A stretch of DNA of 18,002 nucleotides from a virus. Below the pieces are notes generated by a model, which searched no databases, had not been told where the DNA came from, and worked only from the letters and a program-made list of their open reading frames with translations. The stretch is from the UHGV virus genome UHGV-0701411. One strand, 5' to 3'. Of this stretch, positions 2,842-17,324 are shown piece by piece. Position 1 is the stretch's first letter, and every line of letters begins with the position of its first letter. A program made the translations under genes and the position numbers.

Positions 2842-5193
2842 ATGCGAAACATTGATCTTATCCGTCAGGTTATCAGTGCGTCTGAAAACAACTGGCCTCA
2901 TGTGCTGGGCTGCCTGAACATAAATGTCCCTGACTCTCCGCGCCGTCATGCTCCCTGCCCTGCATGTGGGGGCAAAGATCGATTCCGGTTCGATGACAAC
3001 GGGCGCGGTAGCTTCATCTGTAATCAGTGCGGCGCTGGTGATGGGCTGGATTTAATTAAACGCGTAAATAACTGCGACACAACAGAGGCGGCGCTTCTTG
3101 CCGCTGATGTTCTGGGTATTGATTACCGGACAACGGAAACACCAGAAGCCACCAGCCAGAAACGGGAACAACTGGAAACCGAGCGCCAGCGACGCGAACA
3201 GGAGCGCCTGAAAAGGGCAGAGAAGGACGAACAACAAAGACGGGATACGTTTTCCCGTCAGTTTGATGACATGCGCAGAAAGGCTGTAAACGGCAAATCT
3301 GATTATCTGGTTGCGAAAGGGGTAGGTGATTTTACATTCCCCGTGTTGCCCGATGGATCTCTGTTGCTGGCGCTGGTGGATAAATCCGGCGCAGTCACAG
3401 CAGCACAGACTATTACCTCACATGGTGAAAAAAGACTCCTGACAGGTTCGGCAAAGCGGGGGGCATATCACGCCATAAACGCACAGAAACGACCTCACAG
3501 CATCATAATTGCTGAGGGGGTGGCTACCGCCCTGTCGTGCCATTTAATTCGCCCTGACGCAATGACAGTGGCAGCAATCGACGCTGGCAACCTGTTGCCA
3601 GTAGCGGAAGTCATGCGCAGAACATATCCACAGGCACAAATCATCATTGCCGCAGATAACGATCACCAGCAAGGAAACTCCGAAAGTGGAGGGATCAACA
3701 CGGGGAAAGATGCCGCAGAGAGGGCCGCTATTTCCGTAGCTGGCTGGGTGTCTCTGCCACCGACTGACTATAAAGCCGACTGGAACGACTATCACCAACA
3801 ACACGGGCTGGCGGCAGCCACAGCAGCATTTAAAGATTCGATGTACCAGCCACGGGGGAAAGGGGCGCAGGTGAAAAATCACAAACAGCCAGTCGGGGCG
3901 CTGAATGAGATCAGTTCTGGCGAGGTGTTAAGCGATGATGAAATTGCTGTCCTCGAAGAAATCAACCGGACGTTTACGCATGTCACCATTGGCGGGAAAC
4001 ACAAGGTGGTGTCGCTAAAGCCTTCTCAAACCGGCGGTGTATCGCACGTTTTCGAGGATTTATCACAATTTCAGCATTATTTTCATCATAAACCGAGAGT
4101 CGCCAGAAAGCTGGCGGGATCGGCGTGGCTGTCATGGAGTGGGAAGAACTACAAGCCAGGAGGCGTAGGATTTTATCCAGTACCAGGCAAATGCCCTGGC
4201 GATGTTTTTAATCTGTATGAGGGGCTGGCACTGGAACCAATTGAAGGAGATTGCACGGTATACCTTAATCACCTGTTGCAGGTTGTCTGTGCCGGTAATG
4301 AAGAGGCATACCAATATCTTATCCAGTGGATGGCGCACATTATCCAAAAGCCTGATGAAAAACCGTCCGTGGCAATCGTGATGAAATCTGTCCCGGGCAC
4401 AGGGAAAGGCACAACGGTTAAACCGCTGCTGCAAATACTGGGGCAGTACGCCGCCCACATTAACGGGGCGGGACATATTTCAGGGCGCTTCAATTCAATA
4501 CTTGCTAACAAGCTACTGGTATTTGCTGACGAAGTGACGATCCACAAGCCGTCTGAAGCTGACAGACTTAAAGCGATTATTAGCGAACCGACGTTTAACC
4601 TTGAGCGCAAGGGAATTGATGCTGAACCAATGCCGAATTTTGCCCGGTTGATATTTGCCAGTAACAGCACACAGGTATTACAGGCAGGGATAAGAGAGCG
4701 CCGCTATCTCGTGCTTGAGCCATCTCCTGAAAAAGCACAGAGCCGGGAGTATTTTGATCGGCTGTACAGTTGGCTTAATGATGGCGGTGCCGCAAAGTTG
4801 CTTTGGCATCTTAAAGGGGTGGATCTCTCAGGTTTTGACCCTCAACGAGCGCCACAGACCGATGCCTTACGTGAAGAAATCTTGCTGGGGCTGTCTGGCG
4901 TTGAATTGTTTCTTTATGGCGAGCTAATCAATGAACCTCCGTTTAATGGCGAAGTCCGTTTGTTTGCAAAGGATATGGTTAGTCGATTTGTAGCGTGGTC
5001 GCTTGAGCGTGGGGAAAAGCTTAAAGAGCCAGCAGCCAGATCACTACTGGGTAAATCACTTGCACAAATGGGGCTGGTGAAGCATGGAAGACCAGACCGA
5101 GGGAATGGCGTGTTCTACGAACTACCAGAGGTCGGAGTTCTACAGGCTGCGTTTGCCCGTCTGATCGGTATGGGGGGTTATGATGTTTTTTAA
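2842..5193 (+). CDS. P4 alpha-type bifunctional DNA primase/helicase (783 aa)
   Basis: N-terminal zinc ribbon CPACGG...CNQCG. Central TOPRIM-like segment (IIIAEGVATALS, AADND). C-terminal P-loop NTPase with Walker A VMKSVPGTGKGT and Walker B LLVFADEV. Architecture matches P4 alpha / D5-like primase-helicases. Confidence 0.93.
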   Translation: MRNIDLIRQVISASENNWPHVLGCLNINVPDSPRRHAPCPACGGKDRFRFDDNGRGSFICNQCGAGDGLDLIKRVNNCDTTEAALLAADVLGIDYRTTETPEATSQKREQLETERQRREQERLKRAEKDEQQRRDTFSRQFDDMRRKAVNGKSDYLVAKGVGDFTFPVLPDGSLLLALVDKSGAVTAAQTITSHGEKRLLTGSAKRGAYHAINAQKRPHSIIIAEGVATALSCHLIRPDAMTVAAIDAGNLLPVAEVMRRTYPQAQIIIAADNDHQQGNSESGGINTGKDAAERAAISVAGWVSLPPTDYKADWNDYHQQHGLAAATAAFKDSMYQPRGKGAQVKNHKQPVGALNEISSGEVLSDDEIAVLEEINRTFTHVTIGGKHKVVSLKPSQTGGVSHVFEDLSQFQHYFHHKPRVARKLAGSAWLSWSGKNYKPGGVGFYPVPGKCPGDVFNLYEGLALEPIEGDCTVYLNHLLQVVCAGNEEAYQYLIQWMAHIIQKPDEKPSVAIVMKSVPGTGKGTTVKPLLQILGQYAAHINGAGHISGRFNSILANKLLVFADEVTIHKPSEADRLKAIISEPTFNLERKGIDAEPMPNFARLIFASNSTQVLQAGIRERRYLVLEPSPEKAQSREYFDRLYSWLNDGGAAKLLWHLKGVDLSGFDPQRAPQTDALREEILLGLSGVELFLYGELINEPPFNGEVRLFAKDMVSRFVAWSLERGEKLKEPAARSLLGKSLAQMGLVKHGRPDRGNGVFYELPEVGVLQAAFARLIGMGGYDVF

Positions 5194-5223
5194 TATAGTC
5201 TTTTTACAAGAAGATCGCTTTTA

Positions 5224-5328
5224 CCTGTACCACCTATACCACTTTGCTAATTCAGTATTAAAAACAGTGCGTTATAGTGGTACAGGTCAATATCTTACCT
5301 ATACCAGACCTGTACCACCTATACCATT
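5224..5328. repeat. Iteron-like repeat cluster A: three copies of CCTGTACCAC(C)TATACC, two direct (5224-5242, 5309-5328) and one inverted (5271-5288)
   Basis: Read directly from sequence. Lies just 3' of the primase stop; candidate primase/replication-protein binding sites (ori/crr-like) or recombination sites. Confidence 0.6.
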
Positions 5329-5369
5329 AACAAACGCATTTCTTCTGGCTGGCTGAGAGGAAACAACCA

Positions 5370-5600
5370 ATGATGAGCACACCATTTTACAAAGTGCGCC
5401 AGTTAGCTTCTTCCTCTGGCTGGCAGCTACGGTTTGAGGGGCGTTCAGACTGGCTACCCATTGCGGCATGGGCGAATGTTGAAATGTGTATTGACGGCGA
5501 TACCGTTGAAATCATTATTCCCTGCGTGGCAAGTCGGGACGGCTGTATAGAGCCAACAGATATGGCAGCAGAAATCAGAGAGGTAAAACATGAACAATAA
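5370..5600 (+). CDS. Hypothetical protein (76 aa)
   Basis: SD AGAGGAAA 6 nt upstream of ATG 5370; overlaps the downstream gene start at 5590. Confidence 0.55.
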   Translation: MMSTPFYKVRQLASSSGWQLRFEGRSDWLPIAAWANVEMCIDGDTVEIIIPCVASRDGCIEPTDMAAEIREVKHEQ

Positions 5601-6327
5601 CTATTGCATACCGCAGGGAATGACCAGAACGGAGCGCGAAGAATTAAAAAGTTTCGCTACACAGTGCGGGAATGCTGGCGACATCCAAAGTCTGGAACGC
5701 ACTTTAATTATGATTGCGCACTGGATGCGCCAGGGGCAAAGAGTTTCATTTACTGAATATGCCAGCCAGTGGACAGAGGCACAGCGCGAACGGAGCGACG
5801 GTAATCACTCAACACCCGAAATGGCGAAGCAATGGCCTTTCAGTGGTAAACGCTGTATCAGTCCCGGTGGTTCAGATTATTACCCTGCTGGTGTGGGAGA
5901 TGAGCCATGTTGTGACGAGACTGAAATCCGCCACGCAGTGACAGTAATTACCGCTGAATACCCACAATTTAACCTTGACGGACTGGCGCTCCACAACCGG
6001 AATGCGGACTGGGAAAACCCGCTTGATAACCCGTCATTTATCGTATCGGCGAAAAGCTGCCTGAGATGGATCAGAGACAACGGGATGAGTAATGCCCAGA
6101 TTGAGAGCTTCCCGCAGGATAACCCCACATCTGACACGTTGAAGCATGAAGTGGAGCGATATAACCAGATAAACCACCAGCACAGTGATCACCCGCACTA
6201 TATCCCCAACGGAGCATTTATTGCGGCGATGGTGGCAAGCGGCTACAAGGTTAAGCCAGCGGGAAGAATGAACGCATTTTTCAATATTTCAAAAAAGGGA
6301 TTATGTGCTGCTATGGGTAAAAATTAA
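5590..6327 (+). CDS. Hypothetical protein (245 aa)
   Basis: ATG 5590 preceded by AGAGG; 11-nt overlap with the upstream ORF; no recognisable domain. Confidence 0.6.
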   Translation: MNNNYCIPQGMTRTEREELKSFATQCGNAGDIQSLERTLIMIAHWMRQGQRVSFTEYASQWTEAQRERSDGNHSTPEMAKQWPFSGKRCISPGGSDYYPAGVGDEPCCDETEIRHAVTVITAEYPQFNLDGLALHNRNADWENPLDNPSFIVSAKSCLRWIRDNGMSNAQIESFPQDNPTSDTLKHEVERYNQINHQHSDHPHYIPNGAFIAAMVASGYKVKPAGRMNAFFNISKKGLCAAMGKN

Positions 6328-6332
6328 ATAAA

Positions 6333-6437
6333 TGGTACAGGTCTGTACAGGTGGGGAGAGGTCATTTTTACCCACCTGTACCACCTGCAGGCCGCGCCAC
6401 ACAAGGGTTTGTGACATGGTGGTACAGGTGGTACAGC
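6333..6437. repeat. Iteron-like repeat cluster B: GGTACAGG / CCTGTACCACCT copies at 6333-6356, 6371-6391 and 6418-6437, partly arranged as an imperfect palindrome
   Basis: Same core motif as cluster A; together the clusters bracket the 5370..6327 module. Confidence 0.6.
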
Positions 6438-6801
6438 AAAAACAGCGATTTTCTTTATAAGGTATGTTTTGCTCATCTGGCAGACGGAGGTATTCGCTGC
6501 GGTTTGGCACATAGCCCAGAATAGCAAAGAGTTTTACGAGACTTTTGTAAAATCCAGTGTACAAGGGCGTGACGTTTTTGAAGGAGAGACCTACGAAATT
6601 TTCGTAGTTCAAAAAATAGCCTCTGAGATGTTGTTATGCCTGTTCAGCAAACCATCCGCATAGCTGATCGCGAATCAAATTACCAATGGAGCCAGAAGCA
6701 AGGGCAGAACTGAAAAGCTCACGCCATGAAGAATAATGCGACTCCATAAATATAGTTTTTAGAGTCCATAAAAAAACTGTCAAAACCTGACATACAGAAC
6801 G

Positions 6802-6835
6802 ATGCCACCAGCTACTGAACGGTGGCATTTTTTTG
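6802..6835 (+). terminator. Rho-independent terminator candidate (ATGCCACC-loop-GGTGGCAT followed by T7)
   Basis: 8-bp GC-rich stem, 11-nt loop, then TTTTTTTG on the + strand. Confidence 0.6.
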
Positions 6836-6854
6836 TGCTATTTGTTTCATATTT

Positions 6855-6916
6855 TGCAATCACAATGATGAATGTTGCGTTTTATGAAACTATAATAACT
6901 GTTGTTTTATACAGTT
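6855..6916 (+). promoter_or_regulatory. Putative promoter (-10 TATAAT at 6891-6896) with a LexA-box-like palindrome AACTGTTGTTTTATACAGTT (6897-6916)
   Basis: CTGT-N8-ACAG with an AT-rich spacer matches the E. coli SOS-box consensus CTGT-(AT)4-ACAG. It sits between the -10 and the RBS of the 6930 operon. The -35 is unclear. Confidence 0.4.
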
Positions 6917-6929
6917 CTAAGGGGGCGTT

Positions 6930-7103
6930 ATGGCTATTTCAGTAAAGCCAGTATTGATAAGTGAGAAGCAAATGGAAGCGATAAAGAAAATTCAGGAGGA
7001 GCAGCGTAAAAAATCAGAGGTAGGAGTTGCGCCAACGATCCACGAAATTGCTCGGGGATTAATGGATAAGGCGCTGGCTTACACTTTAACTGGACGTGGG
7101 TAA
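6930..7103 (+). CDS. Small protein (57 aa, MAISVKPVLISEKQMEAIKKIQEEQRKKSEVGVAPTIHEIARGLMDKALAYTLTGRG), possible ribbon-helix-helix fold
   Basis: Absent from the ORF track because it is short. SD AAGGGGG 4-5 nt upstream of ATG 6930; stop TAA at 7101-7103, 4 nt before the next start. The strand-helix-helix pattern is inferred from the sequence only. Confidence 0.45.
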   Translation: MAISVKPVLISEKQMEAIKKIQEEQRKKSEVGVAPTIHEIARGLMDKALAYTLTGRG

Positions 7104-7107
7104 ATCA

Positions 7108-8574
7108 ATGGCTACGTGGCAACAGGGTATTAATTCTGGTGGTTTTCTGGCTGGCATTGGTGCGCAAAATGAGAATGCGCCAAAGGCAAGCGACATTAAC
7201 GCAACGCTTGGTATGATCCGCGAAAACAATGAACTGGCTCGATCAGGTGCAAATAACGTTGCTCTGACAGGTCTTCGTGGTCTGGCTGGAGTTGCTGATA
7301 TTTATAAGCAGCAGCAACAGCAGGAGCGTAAAGCGGCATTCCAGAAAGGTTATGCAGATGCTTATGCGTCCGGTGACAGGGAGCAGATGCGTAATCTTAT
7401 TACAGCATTCCCAGAAGAGTTTGAGGAAGTCCGTAAAGGGATGAGTTATGTCGATGATGCTCAAAGGGATGATTATGGCAATCTGGCGCTCAAAGCACAG
7501 GTAGCCTCATCGCTTGGTCAGGGCGCATTTGGCAGGTTCATGATGGATAATGAGCAGGAGATGCGTCGTTTAGGTATCCCTCCAGAAACTATTGCTGAAA
7601 TGCAGGTTAATGACCCGCAGGGCTTCCAGCATTTCGCAGGTAATCTGGCGCTGTTTTCTCTCGGTCATGAGAAGTATTTCGATATCAAAGACCAAATGGA
7701 AGGTCGGGATATTGAGCGTGGCAAGTTGGCAGAGACAATCCGCAGCAATCAGGCTGGCGAAGCACTTCAGGCGAGAGGGCAGGATATTAGCCGAGCAAAT
7801 GCGTTAACGTCAGCATATGCCCCAACAGCAGCAATGCAGAATTACAATCAGTACGCTCAAATGTTAAAGGCGGATCCAGAGGGGGCGGCGGCATTTGCGG
7901 CAGCGGCTGGAATTAATACAAACGCCAAAAAATTAATGAGTGTTAGAGAAAACGATGATGGCACTGTCACAAAATACTACACAGACGGAAGTGAAGAGCA
8001 TGGAAAACTAAACCAGCCAATATCTGGAGATGGGTTTCGTCCAATAGCTTTGCCAACAGCCCAAAAGATCATGGAAAAGTCGCCAGAAGGGGCTAAAAAA
8101 GCTGCTGGATTTGCATACAGAGTTAGGGATGCTCTTGATTCAATGGATACACTGAAAGGCCAGCTTAGCCCACAGCGAGTGGCGATCATTAATAATGCTT
8201 TGGGTAATGGGACGCTGGCTAACTTAACGCTCAGCCCAACAGAGCAGCAATACGTTGTTAATGCTAATGACGCAATAATGGCAATACTCCGTCAGGAAAC
8301 AGGGGCAGCTATCGTACCTGCTGAAATGTCAAAATATTATCAAATGTATTTCCCTCAGCCTGGCGACTCCACAAAAACCATTGATACCAAGCGCCGGAAG
8401 ATGGAAAACCAGTTCAATTCGCTGAAAGCTGCTTCTGGTCGAGCTTATGATGCTTTGCGGGTTATTTCAGCAGTTGACAGAGGGACTTCTTCTTCGTCGC
8501 AGACATTGCCGCAATCTGAGCAGGTATCACAGCCAGCAGCCAGCAGTAATTTTTCTTCACTATGGGGTGATTAA
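7108..8574 (+). CDS. Large hypothetical protein A (488 aa), Ala/Gln/Gly-rich low-complexity, family not recognised
   Basis: Long ORF with start ATG 7108 (track begins at GTG 7096). Stop overlaps the start of protein B (TAATG at 8572-8576). No catalytic motif seen. Confidence 0.8.
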   Translation: MATWQQGINSGGFLAGIGAQNENAPKASDINATLGMIRENNELARSGANNVALTGLRGLAGVADIYKQQQQQERKAAFQKGYADAYASGDREQMRNLITAFPEEFEEVRKGMSYVDDAQRDDYGNLALKAQVASSLGQGAFGRFMMDNEQEMRRLGIPPETIAEMQVNDPQGFQHFAGNLALFSLGHEKYFDIKDQMEGRDIERGKLAETIRSNQAGEALQARGQDISRANALTSAYAPTAAMQNYNQYAQMLKADPEGAAAFAAAAGINTNAKKLMSVRENDDGTVTKYYTDGSEEHGKLNQPISGDGFRPIALPTAQKIMEKSPEGAKKAAGFAYRVRDALDSMDTLKGQLSPQRVAIINNALGNGTLANLTLSPTEQQYVVNANDAIMAILRQETGAAIVPAEMSKYYQMYFPQPGDSTKTIDTKRRKMENQFNSLKAASGRAYDALRVISAVDRGTSSSSQTLPQSEQVSQPAASSNFSSLWGD

Positions 8575-10679
8575 TGGCTAAAGCATGGAAAGATGTTATC
8601 GCCTCTCCACAGTATCAGGCGTTAGCACCAGAACAAAAAGCGCAGGCTCAGGAGCAATACTTCAATGAAGTCGTGGCCCCGCAAGCCGGAGAAAGTGTAG
8701 AGCAGGCTAAGCAGGCTTTTTATGCTGCCTATCCACTACCATCAACGAATGAAATAGACCGATCCCAATCAGCAACTCAAAATATTCAACATACATCATC
8801 TGATAATTCTCTTGCGTCAGGGTATGCAAAGTTAGCTACTCAGCAAAGAGAGGGGCTTGAGCGTTCAGCAGAACAGGGAGCCAGTCTTGGGGCTGCTATG
8901 CGCGATGCTATAACAGGCGAAAGCCGAATGACTCCAGAGATGGAGAGACTGCAAAATGTCGACCTTGCCCCAGAGTTAACCTCACTCAGCATGGATGCTC
9001 TAAAAGCTCGATGGTCTCAACTTTTCGGCTCTGACGCATCTCAGGAAAAGATTCTTCAGAGCATGGGAGCGAAATTAAGGCAGGATGAGAAGGGTAACAC
9101 TATCGTTTCCCTGCCATCCGGTGATTATGCTCTGAACAAGCCGGGTTTATCGCCGCAAGACGTGGCATCGTTTCTGGCTAATGCGCTGGCGTTTACACCA
9201 GCGGGCAGGGCTGGAACGGTGCTTGGTGCCATAGGAAAATCAGCAGCTACAGATTTAGCACTACAGGGAGCCACCAGCCTTGCTGGTGGAGAAGATATTG
9301 ATCCGTTACAAACGGTAATTTCTGCTGGCATTGGTGGTATTGGTAAGGGGCTGGAAAATACAGCGAGTGCGGTTTCGAGGGCTGTTCGTGGTGATATGTC
9401 GCCTGAAGCAAAGGCTGCTGTCAACTTTGCATCGGAAAGAAATCTGCCGTTAATGACCAGTGACATGCTGAAAGATAAAACCTTTATGCAGAGTCAGGCT
9501 CAGACATTAGGCGAAAGAGTTCCTTTTTTTGGAACCGGTAAGAATCGGCTGAATCAACAACAAGCACGAGAAAATTTAGTCAGAACATTTAGCGATGGTC
9601 TGGGTGGCATTTCTGATAAACAGCTTTATGAATCTGCGACTAAAGGGCAACAAAAATTCATTGAGGCAGCAGGAAAGCGATATAACCGCATAATTGACGC
9701 TATGGGGGATACCCCTGTCGATCTCTCAAACACGGTAAAAGCTATCGACAATCAGATTGCCGTGTTAAGCCGCCCTGGCAAATCTCAGGATAGAGCCGCG
9801 GTAAAAGTCTTGCAGCAATTTAAAGACGATATCACCAGCGGACCAAATGACCTGCGTCTGGCGAGGGAAAACAGAACCGATCTTCGAAAGCGATTTATGG
9901 CGTCATCTGACACTGTTGATAAAGATACGCTCCAGAAAGCCAGCGATATTATCTACAAGGCATATACGGCGGATATGAAAAAAGCCGTAGCCAAAAATCT
10001 TGGAGCAGACGAAGCCATTAATATGGCAAGGGTTGATCGCTCATGGTCTAAATTCAATGACATGATGGGAAGAACGCGCGTTCAAAAGGCAATAGCCAGC
10101 GGCAAGGCCACGCCTGAGGATGTAACAAAACTCGTTTTTAGCCAAAGCCCATCAGAACGTTCTCAGCTTTACAGGCTTCTGGATGACAATGGTAGGCAAA
10201 ACGCACGAGCAGCCATAGTTCAGAATGCTGTAGATAAGGCGACTGATCCGTCTGGAAATATCAGTGTTGAGAAGTTTATTAATGCGTTACACCGGAACAG
10301 GAAGCAATCAGCAACTTTCTTTAAAGGCGTACATGGAAAGGAACTGGACGGCGTTATTAAATACCTCAACGATACAAGACACGCGGCAAAAGCGAACGTT
10401 CAAAACTTAAATGGTCAGCAGCTTTATGGATTGTTAGTTGGTGGTGGCATCATAAACGCAGCAGTATTAGCGGGGATGCTAAAAACGGCTGCGTTTGTTG
10501 TTCCTGCTGCTGGTGCCGTAGGCGGAGCAGCGAAGGCATACGAAAGCCCTGTTATTCGAAATGCCTTGTTACGTCTGGCAAATACGCCAAAAGGTAGCAC
10601 AGCATATGACAGAGCGATCAGTACGGTCACACAATCACTGACCACAGCAGCACAAGCATCGCAAAAGGAAGCTCAATAA
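8574..10679 (+). CDS. Large hypothetical protein B (701 aa), Ala/Gln-rich with a C-proximal Gly/Ala-rich hydrophobic segment
   Basis: ATG 8574 is translationally coupled to A. Hydrophobic stretch LYGLLVGGGIINAAVLAGMLKTAAFVVPAAGAVGGAAKAY encoded at about 10424-10546. No enzymatic motif seen. Confidence 0.85.
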   Translation: MAKAWKDVIASPQYQALAPEQKAQAQEQYFNEVVAPQAGESVEQAKQAFYAAYPLPSTNEIDRSQSATQNIQHTSSDNSLASGYAKLATQQREGLERSAEQGASLGAAMRDAITGESRMTPEMERLQNVDLAPELTSLSMDALKARWSQLFGSDASQEKILQSMGAKLRQDEKGNTIVSLPSGDYALNKPGLSPQDVASFLANALAFTPAGRAGTVLGAIGKSAATDLALQGATSLAGGEDIDPLQTVISAGIGGIGKGLENTASAVSRAVRGDMSPEAKAAVNFASERNLPLMTSDMLKDKTFMQSQAQTLGERVPFFGTGKNRLNQQQARENLVRTFSDGLGGISDKQLYESATKGQQKFIEAAGKRYNRIIDAMGDTPVDLSNTVKAIDNQIAVLSRPGKSQDRAAVKVLQQFKDDITSGPNDLRLARENRTDLRKRFMASSDTVDKDTLQKASDIIYKAYTADMKKAVAKNLGADEAINMARVDRSWSKFNDMMGRTRVQKAIASGKATPEDVTKLVFSQSPSERSQLYRLLDDNGRQNARAAIVQNAVDKATDPSGNISVEKFINALHRNRKQSATFFKGVHGKELDGVIKYLNDTRHAAKANVQNLNGQQLYGLLVGGGIINAAVLAGMLKTAAFVVPAAGAVGGAAKAYESPVIRNALLRLANTPKGSTAYDRAISTVTQSLTTAAQASQKEAQ

Positions 10680-12571: not shown

Positions 12572-12853
12572 ATGATAAGGGACAGGAAAGCTGAAGAGCT
12601 GGAGTCAAAAGGGCTATACCGGAGAGCTGCCGCACGATGGATGGAAGTCATGCTGTTATGCACCGAGGACGATGATCGGGAATGGATAAAGCGCCGCCGT
12701 GAAACGTGTCTGGAGAACGTGAAGCGCCCGCCCGTGAAGGTTGAGGACTTTGGCGACCTGCATAAAGCTGTTACCGAAACGCAACACCGCATGGGGATAG
12801 CGCAACCGAACGGTAACGCCTTCCGGTTAAATGGCGGCAAGAGGCAAAGGTAG
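12572..12853 (+). CDS. PerC-family-like transcriptional regulator (93 aa, MIRDRKAEELESKGLYRRAAARWMEV...)
   Basis: SD GAGAGG 5 nt upstream of ATG 12572. The N-terminal AEELE-KGL-RRAA-RW pattern resembles PerC-type prophage activators; the family call is from memory. Confidence 0.55.
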   Translation: MIRDRKAEELESKGLYRRAAARWMEVMLLCTEDDDREWIKRRRETCLENVKRPPVKVEDFGDLHKAVTETQHRMGIAQPNGNAFRLNGGKRQR

Positions 12854-13456: not shown

Positions 13457-13999
13457 ATGTACCAGCTAAAGATAACCATCCGAGACAGCAAACCACCTAT
13501 ATGGCGGCGTGTGCTGGTTCCAGAGCAAATCCCCTTTAGTAAACTTCATGCCGTGATCCAGTTAGCTTTTGGCTGGCATGACGAACACCTGTATATGTTC
13601 GAGAAAGGGCGTAAAGGTGATCCAGGTAGCGAGTATCACGTATGGGGTGAGGATGAAAGCATGGGTAACGCGGCAATCACGCCACTATGGGCGGCGCTCC
13701 AGAATGAGGGTGACAAGCTGGTTTACACGTATGACTTTGGCGACTGGTGGGATTGCGTCATTGTGCTGGAGAAGCAAACACACGATACGAGTAATCAGCC
13801 CATTAGCTGCCTGCGTGGGAAAGGCACCACCCCGGCGGAAAACTCAGGCGGCTTGCATGGTTACAATGAATTGCTATTACAGGCCAGAGAGTCTGATAAT
13901 CCTGAGCAGGCCGAGATCCACAATTTCCTGATGCTGGATATTGAACGCCGGGTTTACGACCTGAGCCGCATCAACGACAGATTGCAGGCTATTAACTGA
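13457..13999 (+). CDS. Plasmid pRiA4b ORF-3-like (MM3350-like) family protein (180 aa)
   Basis: Hallmark motifs YQLKITIRDSKPPIWRRVLVP ... LHAVIQLAFGWHDEHLYMF ... YTYDFGDWWDCVIVLE match the conserved signature of this family as I recall it. Confidence 0.8.
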   Translation: MYQLKITIRDSKPPIWRRVLVPEQIPFSKLHAVIQLAFGWHDEHLYMFEKGRKGDPGSEYHVWGEDESMGNAAITPLWAALQNEGDKLVYTYDFGDWWDCVIVLEKQTHDTSNQPISCLRGKGTTPAENSGGLHGYNELLLQARESDNPEQAEIHNFLMLDIERRVYDLSRINDRLQAIN

Positions 14000-14471: not shown

Positions 14472-14738
14472 CGTGTACACAAGGGTGTACCTACTGAGAA
14501 AACGCATTACAAGAAACACAGCAACCACGGGAGTTTAAAGCCACTACTCAATAAACAGATCCAGAATATCGAATAAGCTATCAGCAAAAATCACCAAGCA
14601 GCAAAAAACCATAAAGCCCGCGAAATGTCGGGCTTTTTTGTTATCATGAGCTATCATAACGACGCAACAAAGCGCATGATTATGGTGTACACAAAGGTGT
14701 ACCCAATGAGGTTTGGGTACATTGCTTTGGGTACACCC
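14472..14738. repeat. Repeat family GTGTACACAA(A/G)GGTGTACC (14472-14492, 14684-14704) and GGGTACATTGCTTTGGGTACACCC (14715-14738) upstream of the integrase; candidate Int arm-type (attL) sites
   Basis: Near-identical 20-mers about 210 bp apart, directly 5' of the integrase start; related copies at 6555-6575, 11192-11207 and 11505-11515. Confidence 0.55.
14613..14640 (+). terminator. Rho-independent terminator (AAAGCCCG-loop-CGGGCTTT then TTTTTTG)
   Basis: Perfect 8-bp stem with 8-nt loop and a T-run; A-run on the 5' side makes it potentially bidirectional. Sits between the att-like repeats and the integrase start. Confidence 0.7.
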
Positions 14739-14765
14739 CCTATTCAAAGTTTGGATATTCGCAAA

Positions 14766-16025
14766 ATGCCAAAACTAACAGACATGCAGATCCGCGCATG
14801 GATTAAGAGCGGAGAGCGATTCGAGGGGCGGGCAGACGGTAACGGTTTATACCTACGTTACCGTGAAGCCGACAAAACCCCCACATGGAGATTCCGCTAT
14901 AAACTCGCAGGGAAGTCCCGCGCCATGCTAATTGGTTCGTATAGCGAGATATCACTATCAAAGGCCAGAGAGACAGCCAAAGAGCTGTCAGCCAGAGTTG
15001 CTCTTGGCTATGACGTAGCAGCAGAGAAACAGGAACGAAAAGCTGAAGCACTGGCAAAAATGGAGGCTGAGAAAAACGCCATGCGTGTTTCAGATCTGGC
15101 CTCCGAATACTTCGAGCGCCAGATACTTCCGAGATGGAAACATCCCGATATCCTTCGCCGGAGAATTGATAAGGATATTAACCCCTGCATTGGGCATATG
15201 AAGGTAGAGGACGTTAAGCCACGCCACATTGACGACATGTTGAAAGGTATCGTTGACCGAGGAGCACCAACGATAGCAACAGATGTATTACGCTGGACAC
15301 GCCGTATCTTTGACTACGGGATAAAACGCCACGCTCTGGAGATAAACCCTTGTTCAGCGTTTGAAGTATCTGATGCTGGTGGTAAAGAGGTTTCCCGCGA
15401 CCGTTGGCTAACTCGCGATGAGCTTATCAGGCTATTCGAGGCTATGCGCACCGCAAAAGGATTCAGCCGCCAGAACGAACTGACATTTAAGCTATTGCTG
15501 GCACTATGCGTTCGTAAGATGGAGTTATGCGCCGCACGATGGGAAGAGTTTGATTTAGATGGTGCGGTATGGCATTTGCCGGAAGAACGCAGCAAAAACG
15601 GAGACCCTATTGATATACCTCTACCTTCTCCAGCCGTTGAATGGTTGAGAGAACTACACACCTTTTCATGTAATAGCGCATGGGTGCTTCCAGCCAGGAA
15701 GATGCAAAACAGAATGATCCCACATATTCAGGAAAGCACTTTGCCCGTAGCACTGGCTAAGGTTCGCGCCGAAATGCCGGATGTGCCTAATTTCACGATT
15801 CACGACTTCCGACGCACCGCACGTACTCATTTAGCAGCGTTGGGCGTTGATCCGGTAGTCGCAGAAAGATGCCTTAATCACAAAATTAAAGGTGTGGAGG
15901 GTATCTATAACCGTCACCAGTATTTTGATGAGCGTAAAGCGGCGCTGGCGCAGTGGTGTGATTTGCTGGTGGCACTGGAGCGCGGCGAAGAATACAACGT
16001 GACGCCTATCAGAAAGGCAAAGTAA
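14766..16025 (+). CDS. Tyrosine site-specific integrase, P4/CP4-57 type (419 aa; alternative starts 14706 or 14625)
   Basis: N-terminus MPKLTDMQIRAWIK...GLYLRY...WRFRYK matches the P4-type Int N-terminal pattern. C-terminal catalytic signature HDFRRTARTHL ... Y. The track ORF begins at 14625 but overlaps the terminator hairpin, so a downstream start is preferred. Confidence 0.93.
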   Translation: MPKLTDMQIRAWIKSGERFEGRADGNGLYLRYREADKTPTWRFRYKLAGKSRAMLIGSYSEISLSKARETAKELSARVALGYDVAAEKQERKAEALAKMEAEKNAMRVSDLASEYFERQILPRWKHPDILRRRIDKDINPCIGHMKVEDVKPRHIDDMLKGIVDRGAPTIATDVLRWTRRIFDYGIKRHALEINPCSAFEVSDAGGKEVSRDRWLTRDELIRLFEAMRTAKGFSRQNELTFKLLLALCVRKMELCAARWEEFDLDGAVWHLPEERSKNGDPIDIPLPSPAVEWLRELHTFSCNSAWVLPARKMQNRMIPHIQESTLPVALAKVRAEMPDVPNFTIHDFRRTARTHLAALGVDPVVAERCLNHKIKGVEGIYNRHQYFDERKAALAQWCDLLVALERGEEYNVTPIRKAK

Positions 16026-17036: not shown

Positions 17037-17105
17037 ATGACATCTAATCCCCCTGCTCACATGATTACCGTAACTTCAACAGCTATCACAGGAGTTACAG
17101 GACAT

Positions 17106-17324
17106 ATGACAGCACATAACGCAGCGCAATCAGCACTTCCTACTACTGGATACATCCGCCGTTTTCGTATGCCGGAACTTCTGGGTGTTTCCATGCCAAC
17201 CATTGACCGCTGGGTTAAGAACGGCACGCTGCCGCGCCCAGTGAAACTCACCGATAACGTGACCGCCTTTGATGCGGTAGAGATTAATAACTGGCTGGCT
17301 GAGCGCCGGGGAAAGGTGGCGTAA
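17106..17324 (+). CDS. alpA: AlpA-family phage transcriptional regulator/excisionase-like protein (start uncertain: 17037, 17061 or 17106)
   Basis: Segment IRRFRMPELLGVSMPTIDRWVKNGTLPRPVKL...AFDAVEINNWLAER matches the AlpA/Vis-type MerR-like HTH pattern. Position after int is as in CP4-57. Confidence 0.75.
   Translation: MTAHNAAQSALPTTGYIRRFRMPELLGVSMPTIDRWVKNGTLPRPVKLTDNVTAFDAVEINNWLAERRGKVA

Follow-up and report, generated by a model that had tools for sequence, protein, structure and literature searches.

Phage-inducible chromosomal islands (PICIs) of Gram-negative bacteria have their replication origin directly 3' of the replication gene (Fillol-Salom et al. 2018, PMC6092414), and deletion of the origin of one such island, EcCICFT073, impairs the Pri-Rep-dependent maintenance of a plasmid (PMC6092414). 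In the Staphylococcus aureus pathogenicity islands (SaPIs) the Rep protein is a superfamily 3 (SF3) helicase, and its C-terminal winged-helix domain binds iterons located directly downstream of rep; the SaPI origin has an AT-rich centre, and two hexamers are thought to load themselves onto it (PMC9371898). A locus to be compared with these systems has been analysed in UHGV virus genome UHGV-0701411, a stretch of 18,002 nucleotides considered at its full length and referred to as the window. Two clusters of repeats, found immediately downstream of a primase-helicase gene, are very probably the two halves of a PICI replication origin, and the repeats the iterons of the adjacent Pri-Rep protein, as judged by comparing sequences; Pri-Rep probably binds both clusters. 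The PICI origin is the class to which the locus is closest, and we are dealing with a known kind of origin, unusual in hosting two genes between its halves. The features needed to follow the argument are listed below.

2842..5193, + strand: gene for the Pri-Rep initiator, 783 aa (Pfam Zn_Ribbon_Prim, Toprim_3 and DUF5906; PHROG DNA primase)
5224..5326: left arm of the putative origin, six iterons (5224+, 5233+, 5278-, 5298+, 5309+, 5318+)
5242..5277: AT-rich left-arm spacer, 36 bp, 69% AT, between convergent iterons, candidate DNA-unwinding site
5370..5600, + strand: orf76, encoding a small protein predicted to be all-beta, nested between the arms
5590..6327, + strand: orf245, accessory gene, nested between the arms
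6333..6437: right arm of the putative origin, iterons 6333-, 6343- (degenerate, 7/9), 6375+, 6420- and 6429- (8/9)
6384..6419: GC-rich right-arm spacer, 36 bp, with a GGCCGCGCCA core at 6390-6399

The preliminary description of this DNA had placed clusters of repeats on both sides of the open reading frames (ORFs) at 5370..6327, and motif searches checked against shuffled sequences bear this out. At up to two mismatches, the window contains CCTGTACCACCT 14 times, where 0.8 matches are expected and each of 200 shuffles gives fewer than 14; eight of these matches fall in 5224-5328 or 6330-6437. The same description had counted at least six copies of a 12-18-nt motif. The repeats are real, but the true unit is a 9-mer, CCTRTACCA, and the longer motif takes in one unit together with some or all of its neighbour. 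The 9-mer is present in 10-11 copies in two clusters of ~105 bp (5224-5326 and 6333-6437), which contain nine of the ten exact matches found in the 18-kb window. The first iteron begins 31 bp past the stop codon of the primase-helicase gene at 5193. The clusters closely bracket the ORFs 5370-5600 and 5590-6327, the last left-arm iteron being 43 bp from the ATG of orf76, and the stop codon of orf245 5 bp from the first right-arm iteron. The two clusters are mutually inverted: nucleotides 5219-5242 pair with 6419-6442 (inverted repeat I1, 24 nt, 88% complementary), and further inverted repeats, I3 and I4, also join left and right clusters as near mirror images. Three diverged E. coli copies (H71, H73, H74) carry no substitutions in the strong iterons, and about 20 in the intergenic DNA around them. 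A scan of 4900-7200 against Rfam returned chance-level matches only.

Orientation and spacing of the iterons follow a grammar, in which '>' marks iterons reading along the sense strand of the initiator gene, and the numbers give the distance from one start to the next.

Window, left arm: > 9 > 45 < 20 > 11 > 9 >
P4 ori1, in alpha orientation: > 10 > 43 < 22 > 11 > 10 >
EcCICFT073 validated ori (iteron CTGTCTACC): > 9 > 49 < 19 > 11 > 9 > 34 < 11 < 68 < 9 <
Window, right arm: < 10 < 32 > 45 < 9 <
P4 crr, each 120-bp unit: < 14 > 18 > 43 < 9 <

An analogy with the ori and crr sites of phage P4 had been drawn in the preliminary description, and gains support from the grammar, which equals that of P4 ori1 and of the crr unit. 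The right arm ends with > 45 < 9 <, to be compared with > 43 < 9 < in the P4 crr unit, and nearly mirrors the left arm. The left arm, in turn, matches in grammar the left half of the validated EcCICFT073 origin. Left-arm grammar is kept within 1-2 bp in Buttiauxella, Pantoea, Raoultella, Enterobacter, Salmonella, Xenorhabdus and several viral contigs, and is present at locus L036 despite a different iteron. In 11 loci from at least seven genera, identity to the window is 93% in iteron columns and 48% in spacer columns. The left-arm spacer measures 36-37 bp and is 57-81% AT in eight loci (the whole window is 52% AT); its counterpart in the P4 ori is 35 bp long and 83% AT. The spacer of the right arm (35-36 bp) has a core, RCCGCGYC, which recurs in L066 (at ~11186), L037, L002, L030 and L014, the validated EcCICFT073 ori being among the origins that have it, and is missing in Xenorhabdus. 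Initiator specificity does not explain this core, because it recurs at origins of unrelated initiator alleles.

What we say about P4 rests on general knowledge and on its GenBank annotation, which puts crr 45 bp past the stop codon of alpha, and ori at a distance of 4.5 kb. P4 ori and crr communicate by looping over these 4.5 kb. The window resembles P4 in encoding an alpha-type N-terminal Zn-ribbon/Toprim primase, and in having two separated iteron-bearing cis sites in the arrangements of ori1 and crr. Residues 1-337 of Pri-Rep are 33% identical to P4 alpha over 335 aa (E = 2e-40). The likeness to alpha suggested in the preliminary description thus holds for the primase domain, but not for helicase and C-terminus, which are not of the P4 alpha type: BLASTP detects no similarity between the two proteins past residue 337, TIGR01613 (primase_Cterm) scores 20.3 bits on Pri-Rep against a cutoff of 108.7, and Pfam finds both D5_N and Pox_D5 in P4 alpha and neither in Pri-Rep. 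The type I iteron of P4, TGTTCACC, is unrelated to CCTRTACCA. Moreover, in P4 the whole replication operon separates crr from the ori-type array, located 4.5 kb upstream, and crr is a tandem duplication, unlike the arms of the window. The island of the window also lacks sid, delta and psu.

Likeness to PICI origins is closer. The array lies directly 3' of a fused pri-rep gene, on an island with the order int-alpA-...-pri-rep-ori-...-PerC; opposed sets of short iterons surround an AT-rich spacer, as in the left arm (>> / 36 bp, 69% AT / <); the initiator is an SF3 helicase with a C-terminal winged helix, predicted in the window; and iterons are specific to the cognate allele, which in the window is indicated by the comparison of ~50 loci. 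Differences from EcCICFT073 are nonetheless marked. Pri-Rep of the window has no BLASTP similarity to the EcCICFT073 protein, its helicase is an NrS-1-like DUF5906 domain lacking D5_N or Pox_D5, and its iteron is CCTRTACCA rather than CTGTCTACC. While EcCICFT073 has one block of ~230 bp, the arms in the window are 1 kb apart, and separated by two genes which look expressed. Iteron theta plasmids (pSC101, P1, F, RK2) are a more distant term of comparison. As in the window, initiator sites adjoin the rep gene, and the second cluster could serve copy control. Yet, the window iterons are 9 bp long, and not 17-22 bp, occur in both orientations, and obey a fixed dyad grammar; DnaA boxes, which were searched throughout the window, are absent, and the initiator is itself a helicase-primase, and not a Rep recruiting DnaB.

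The link between iterons and initiator emerges from the analysis of related loci. The primase was used to scan one genome for each species, and 24 loci were retrieved; others were obtained by protein look-ups (12) and from viral contigs (24), and ~50 related loci were considered in all. As a query, the last 164 residues of Pri-Rep gave fragments only, residues 341-783 a large family. In 23 of the 24 loci an array of short repeats starts 19-63 bp past the initiator stop codon, and among the ~50 loci essentially every relative has an iteron array 3' of the initiator gene. The sequence of the repeat is lineage-specific, as the following iterons illustrate.

TGAACCAAC: many loci, DUF927-type proteins
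TGAGACAAC: L010, L012 and L016, DUF927-type proteins
ACGGGTTA: L007, DUF927-type protein
ATCCCTACCA: L014, D5_N/Pox_D5-type protein
CCGGTCACA: L022
TGGGATAAG: L013 and L025
AATTCGCA: L024
CCTGTACCA: L002 and L003
CTGTCTACC: EcCICFT073

Segment-wise tblastn analyses show that the two halves of Pri-Rep have different distributions. The primase, residues 1-340, keeps 56-88% identity among loci with six types of iteron; in residues 341-783, similarity is detected at no loci other than those carrying iteron CCTGTACCA. C(C)TGTACC(A) is found wherever residues 341-783 resemble those of the window, at identities of 50-100% (as low as 43% in the C-terminal 134 residues), and more distant relatives of this segment carry other repeats. 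Helicase modules located behind the common primase domain include DUF927, in a group of ~930-aa proteins, and D5_N plus DUF5906 plus Pox_D5, in L014. L004 shares with the window 88% of the primase domain, yet has another C-terminal half and another iteron. L014 is similar to the window in int (70%), AlpA (69%), AntA (67%), PerC (58%) and primase domain (67%), and differs in helicase, C-terminus and iteron. The capsid-forming PICI L037 shares with the window essentially nothing but residues 341-783, at 50% identity, and has identical iterons, its int and AlpA being only weakly similar (23-33%). By these comparisons, iteron type is doubly dissociated: it tracks the helicase and C-terminal part of the protein, and neither the primase domain nor other island genes. 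The alignment of related elements proposed in the preliminary description has been carried out in this way, and the repeats are both conserved in relatives and co-variant with the helicase/C-terminal half of the initiator. Because all 10-12 copies are replaced in concert, and because of the L037 case, the repeats are plausibly read in trans by a product encoded in the helicase/C-terminal module. Natural chimeras are seen when window 2842-3861 is compared with L004-L025: the junction is near residue 340, and one primase domain is joined to three unrelated helicase/origin-binding modules, of the DUF5906, DUF927 and D5_N/DUF5906/Pox_D5 types, each with its own iterons.

The same distribution bears on two alternatives. 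Inverted 9-mers resemble operators, and the clusters occupy both intergenic regions around the gene pair, as expected if an island transcription factor (AlpA, Ash, PerC or the orf76 product) controlled from there orf76-orf245 and the genes downstream. However, the iteron does not track AlpA, Ash, AntA or PerC, since L014 has them along with a different iteron, and L037 represents the reverse case; orf76 is missing in L034, L035, L037, L046 and L047, which keep the iterons; and a promoter and terminator scan revealed nothing over shuffle expectation at the clusters. Regulation of this type is thus a very unlikely function of the repeats. A packaging (pac/cos) or partition site, recognized by a helper-phage or host protein, could be invoked by considering that helper-phage packaging signals are present on PICIs (PMC6092414). 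We hold this extremely improbable, as the same iterons are found under differing packaging strategies, in the capsid-forming L037, the P4-like L035 and the island of the window, always follow the same helicase/winged-helix module, and par genes are not present in the island.

Which residues may read the iterons is suggested by proteins of the DUF927 group (L004-L022). Here the switches among iterons TGAACCAAC, TGAGACAAC and ACGGGTTA fall exactly at a change of ~10 residues within the last 40 (QRKSPRI, QGRVRED and YKRKALKRIG, respectively), the remainder being mostly 81-98% identical (69% in one 100-column block). This C-terminal segment is a candidate recognition code. In Pri-Rep of the window the Zn-ribbon and Toprim primase spans approximately residues 1-340, and the DUF5906 SF3 helicase, which matches the phage NrS-1 helicase 6k9c, residues 470-680; a C-terminal winged helix is predicted at about residues 700-783. 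Its parts map as follows.

4939..5190, + strand: predicted winged-helix origin-binding domain, from the model and its structural neighbours
5026-5067, + strand: predicted recognition helix, approximately residues 729-742, from the winged-helix model
5080-5121, + strand: beta-hairpin wing K747-E760, with a near-invariant GRxDRGxG..YE motif

Residues 650-783 were modelled with AlphaFold2 from 48 sequences; the model has a mean predicted local distance difference test (pLDDT) score of 88.5, and consists of helix, strand, helix, helix and beta-hairpin. Structural neighbours are winged helices throughout, including Cdc6/ORC, Cdt1 and the P4 origin-binding domain; Foldseek gave no match below E = 1e-3, and the neighbours indicate a fold class, not a specific relationship. 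L036, the sole member of the family with a different iteron (TCTAACCCA), differs chiefly in the predicted recognition helix. A residue-level recognition code is not shown within the winged-helix family of the window, one iteron switch, that of L036, being available among close relatives.

In relatives the two clusters may be found side by side. The arms are 23-32 bp apart, and the whole origin ~220 bp long, with the same iterons, in L037, L046 and L047; contiguous origins are also found in L014, L034, L035, L036 and EcCICFT073. In Xenorhabdus (L033, L044) the arms are 296 bp apart, around a homologue of orf76 alone. In Escherichia, Raoultella, Salmonella and Buttiauxella they are ~1.0 kb apart (1006 bp in the window), around orf76 and orf245. 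The two genes are tightly packed, and inserted exactly at the dyad centre. The right arm is conserved in L002, L030, L032 and L033. It is in all likelihood correct, as part of the whole origin reading, to view the two clusters as mirror-image arms of a single dyad-symmetric origin, contiguous in relatives and split here. The preliminary description had offered as an alternative that the repeats are recombination sites delimiting a small cassette. The mutual inversion of the clusters (I1, 24 nt, 88% complementary) is what may be expected for the recombination or transposition ends of a mobile two-gene unit, and the module is indeed missing from relatives, and orf245 moves between islands. The proposal finds no support in the comparison, and is highly improbable. 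The arms adjoin each other, with no cassette, in L037, L046, L047 and L066, the EcCICFT073 origin being another name among those so arranged; orf245 occurs in L027 and L028, where it is not flanked by these repeats; the module encodes no recombinase, and the internal grammar is that of known origins. Operators, cassette ends and packaging sites are all contradicted by the distribution of the repeats among loci.

A different question is whether both arms make the origin. The left cluster alone could be the origin, and the right one an auxiliary element, such as a crr-like enhancer, a site for copy control or handcuffing, a roadblock regulating read-through into genes downstream, or a decaying duplicate. 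This alternative is live, though we rate it as doubtful. The left arm gives by itself the full P4 ori1 grammar and contains the AT-rich spacer, and the right arm is more degenerate, with copies matching at 7/9 and 8/9 positions, and more variable between loci. The left arm alone is kept in L003, where the primase is truncated, in L031, where it is intact, and in L056. L031 (at 6260-7500) is an Enterobacter island which has an intact primase, orf76 and orf245, and unrelated sequence in the place of the right arm. On the other hand, the right-arm > 45 < 9 < module is kept in E. coli, Buttiauxella, Raoultella, Salmonella and Xenorhabdus, the right arm is found in all contiguous origins, including the validated EcCICFT073 ori, and P4 crr is annotated as required in cis for replication.

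A two-armed origin recognized by Pri-Rep is our preferred interpretation, and a few observations weigh against it. The iterons physically adjoin the C-terminal half of the gene, so that part of the co-inheritance could be linkage, though L037 and the joint change of all copies speak against linkage alone. Co-variation is coarse in the family of the window, the CTGTACC core being kept from 100% to 43% identity, and one clear switch only, in L036 (TCTAACCCA), is found in this family. The GC-rich spacer of the right arm, with its conserved CCGCGCC core, is not accounted for by initiator binding. Finally, L031 does without the right arm despite having intact primase, orf76 and orf245, and the arm may consequently be dispensable.

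A plausible mode of action of the origin can be outlined. After AlpA-dependent induction of the island, Pri-Rep would bind the 9-bp CCTRTACCA sites via its C-terminal winged helix. The convergent left-arm sites, 36 bp apart, would bracket the AT-rich spacer 5242-5277, where helicase rings could load themselves and melt the DNA; the fused primase would then prime synthesis, and a host polymerase take over extension. The mirror-image right arm could either load an opposing ring or stabilise the complex, the arms presumably communicating by protein-mediated looping over the 1-kb insert, in the manner of P4 ori and crr. Binding, site of melting, looping and need of the right arm are steps that we infer.

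Pushing the comparison further, PICI origins and P4 ori/crr may represent one ancestral dyad-symmetric design, the left arm corresponding to ori1 and the right arm to crr, in which the arms can be separated by nested genes, and orf76 would not be a passive cargo. We put this forward as a conjecture, rather unlikely at present. According to it, the nested content would be nothing in L037, orf76 in Xenorhabdus, orf76 plus orf245 in the window, and the whole replication operon in P4. The gene orf76 could encode a cognate factor for replication or copy number, in a role comparable to that of P4 Cnr, and be expressed or not depending on the binding of the initiator or on looping of the arms. But for one marginal match in L007, the gene is confined to the enterobacterial branch of this initiator type, where it invariably comes next to the left arm, on its downstream side.

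Both nested ORFs are real genes, given that dN/dS (the ratio of nonsynonymous to synonymous substitution rates) ranges from 0.07 to 0.28 (0.07-0.28 for orf76, 0.08-0.16 for orf245). Homologues of orf76, 43-86% identical in amino acids, are found in L002, L003 and L030-L033; the gene is confined to enterobacterial elements in which the arms are split or the right arm is missing, bar one marginal match in L007, and is absent from L034, L035, L037, L046 and L047, all of which have the iterons. The L007 match is a weakly orf76-like ORF at 9139-9456 (hidden Markov model E = 2e-4, in a small database), located directly after the origin of a DUF927-type primase; it may hint at a wider spread of a small post-origin gene. 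The orf76 product has no match in Pfam, PHROG, NCBIfam or PADLOC, and its structural model (pLDDT 71) no informative fold match. For orf245, no family, defence-system or informative fold match was obtained in the libraries scanned. A HMMER search among 1.8 billion proteins retrieved 64 representative clusters only, and none of ten sampled has a Pfam domain informative about orf245. Homologues of this gene (64-67% amino acid identity) reside in L027 (6019-6792) and L028 (5881-6654), PICIs which use an unrelated RepA (AAA_25) helicase, directly after an origin made of AAAAGTGAGG repeats. Being present after RepA-type PICI origins, orf245 qualifies as a shuffled post-origin accessory gene, not bound to one replicon.

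New relative to the literature that we found are the separation of the arms by nested genes, and a base-pair-level grammar common to P4 and unrelated helicase modules. The analysis locates a cis-acting origin, and a probable origin-binding domain, for the Pri-Rep allele of ~2.6% of complete E. coli genomes, a localisation needed for building replicons or for tracking the induction of satellites. Since P4, a validated PICI origin and three or more unrelated helicase/origin-binding modules have this grammar in common, self-loading helicase-primases are implied to assemble at origins under one shared geometric constraint. In the natural domain swaps, a generic primase domain is followed by a helicase, a winged helix and an origin which are exchanged together. 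The distance tolerated between the arms ranges from 24 bp to 1 kb, which connects the compact PICI origin with the split ori/crr of P4, long a puzzle, and allows the role of crr to be tested in a simpler system.

The window is a PICI-type phage-satellite island of the E. coli chromosome; in function and gene context, its putative origin is that of a PICI. The region 5150-6500 is at least 99% identical in 118 complete E. coli genomes, and has some match in 140 of 5426 (~2.6%); all the E. coli copies are chromosomal, and enterotoxigenic E. coli (ETEC) H10407 is among the carriers. A megablast search with the same region found no match in 50,697 phage records. In H10407 the island includes, in this order, an integrase gene, a divergent small gene, an AlpA-like helix-turn-helix (HTH) gene, antA, DUF4222, ash, small ORFs and the primase-helicase gene, followed by two hypotheticals, ejection-protein genes and PerC. 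The island of the window has the components of PICI synteny, int, alpA, DUF4222, pri-rep, ori and PerC, and is syntenic with EcCICFT073, which carries int, alpA, ..., DUF4222, pri-rep, a 290-bp gap, ..., SSB (single-stranded DNA-binding protein), PerC and capsid genes. None of the sid, delta, psu, epsilon and cos components of P4 was found in Pfam and PHROG scans of the window or in the annotation of H10407, and tRNA genes are missing from the window. Two further genes are carried by the island.

12572-12853: gene for a PerC/ANR-family regulator
13457-13999: pRiA4b ORF-3-like gene

PerC homologues of E. coli PICIs have been reported to activate the locus of enterocyte effacement (LEE) in some strains (PMC6092414). 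Genes for podovirus-type DNA-ejection proteins, at 7096-8574 and 8574-10679, are carried as cargo on this PICI-like island: one codes for an Inj_translocase similar to P22 gp16, and is a pseudogene in ETEC H10407, and the other codes for a DNA-transfer/transglycosylase protein of 701 aa. Farther on, a second tyrosine integrase gene (14625-16025) is followed by an AlpA-like HTH gene (17037-17324), and with these two genes a further satellite-type element seems to begin, arranged in tandem with the first. The H10407 copy runs into the pao locus at the place where the window has the second integrase.

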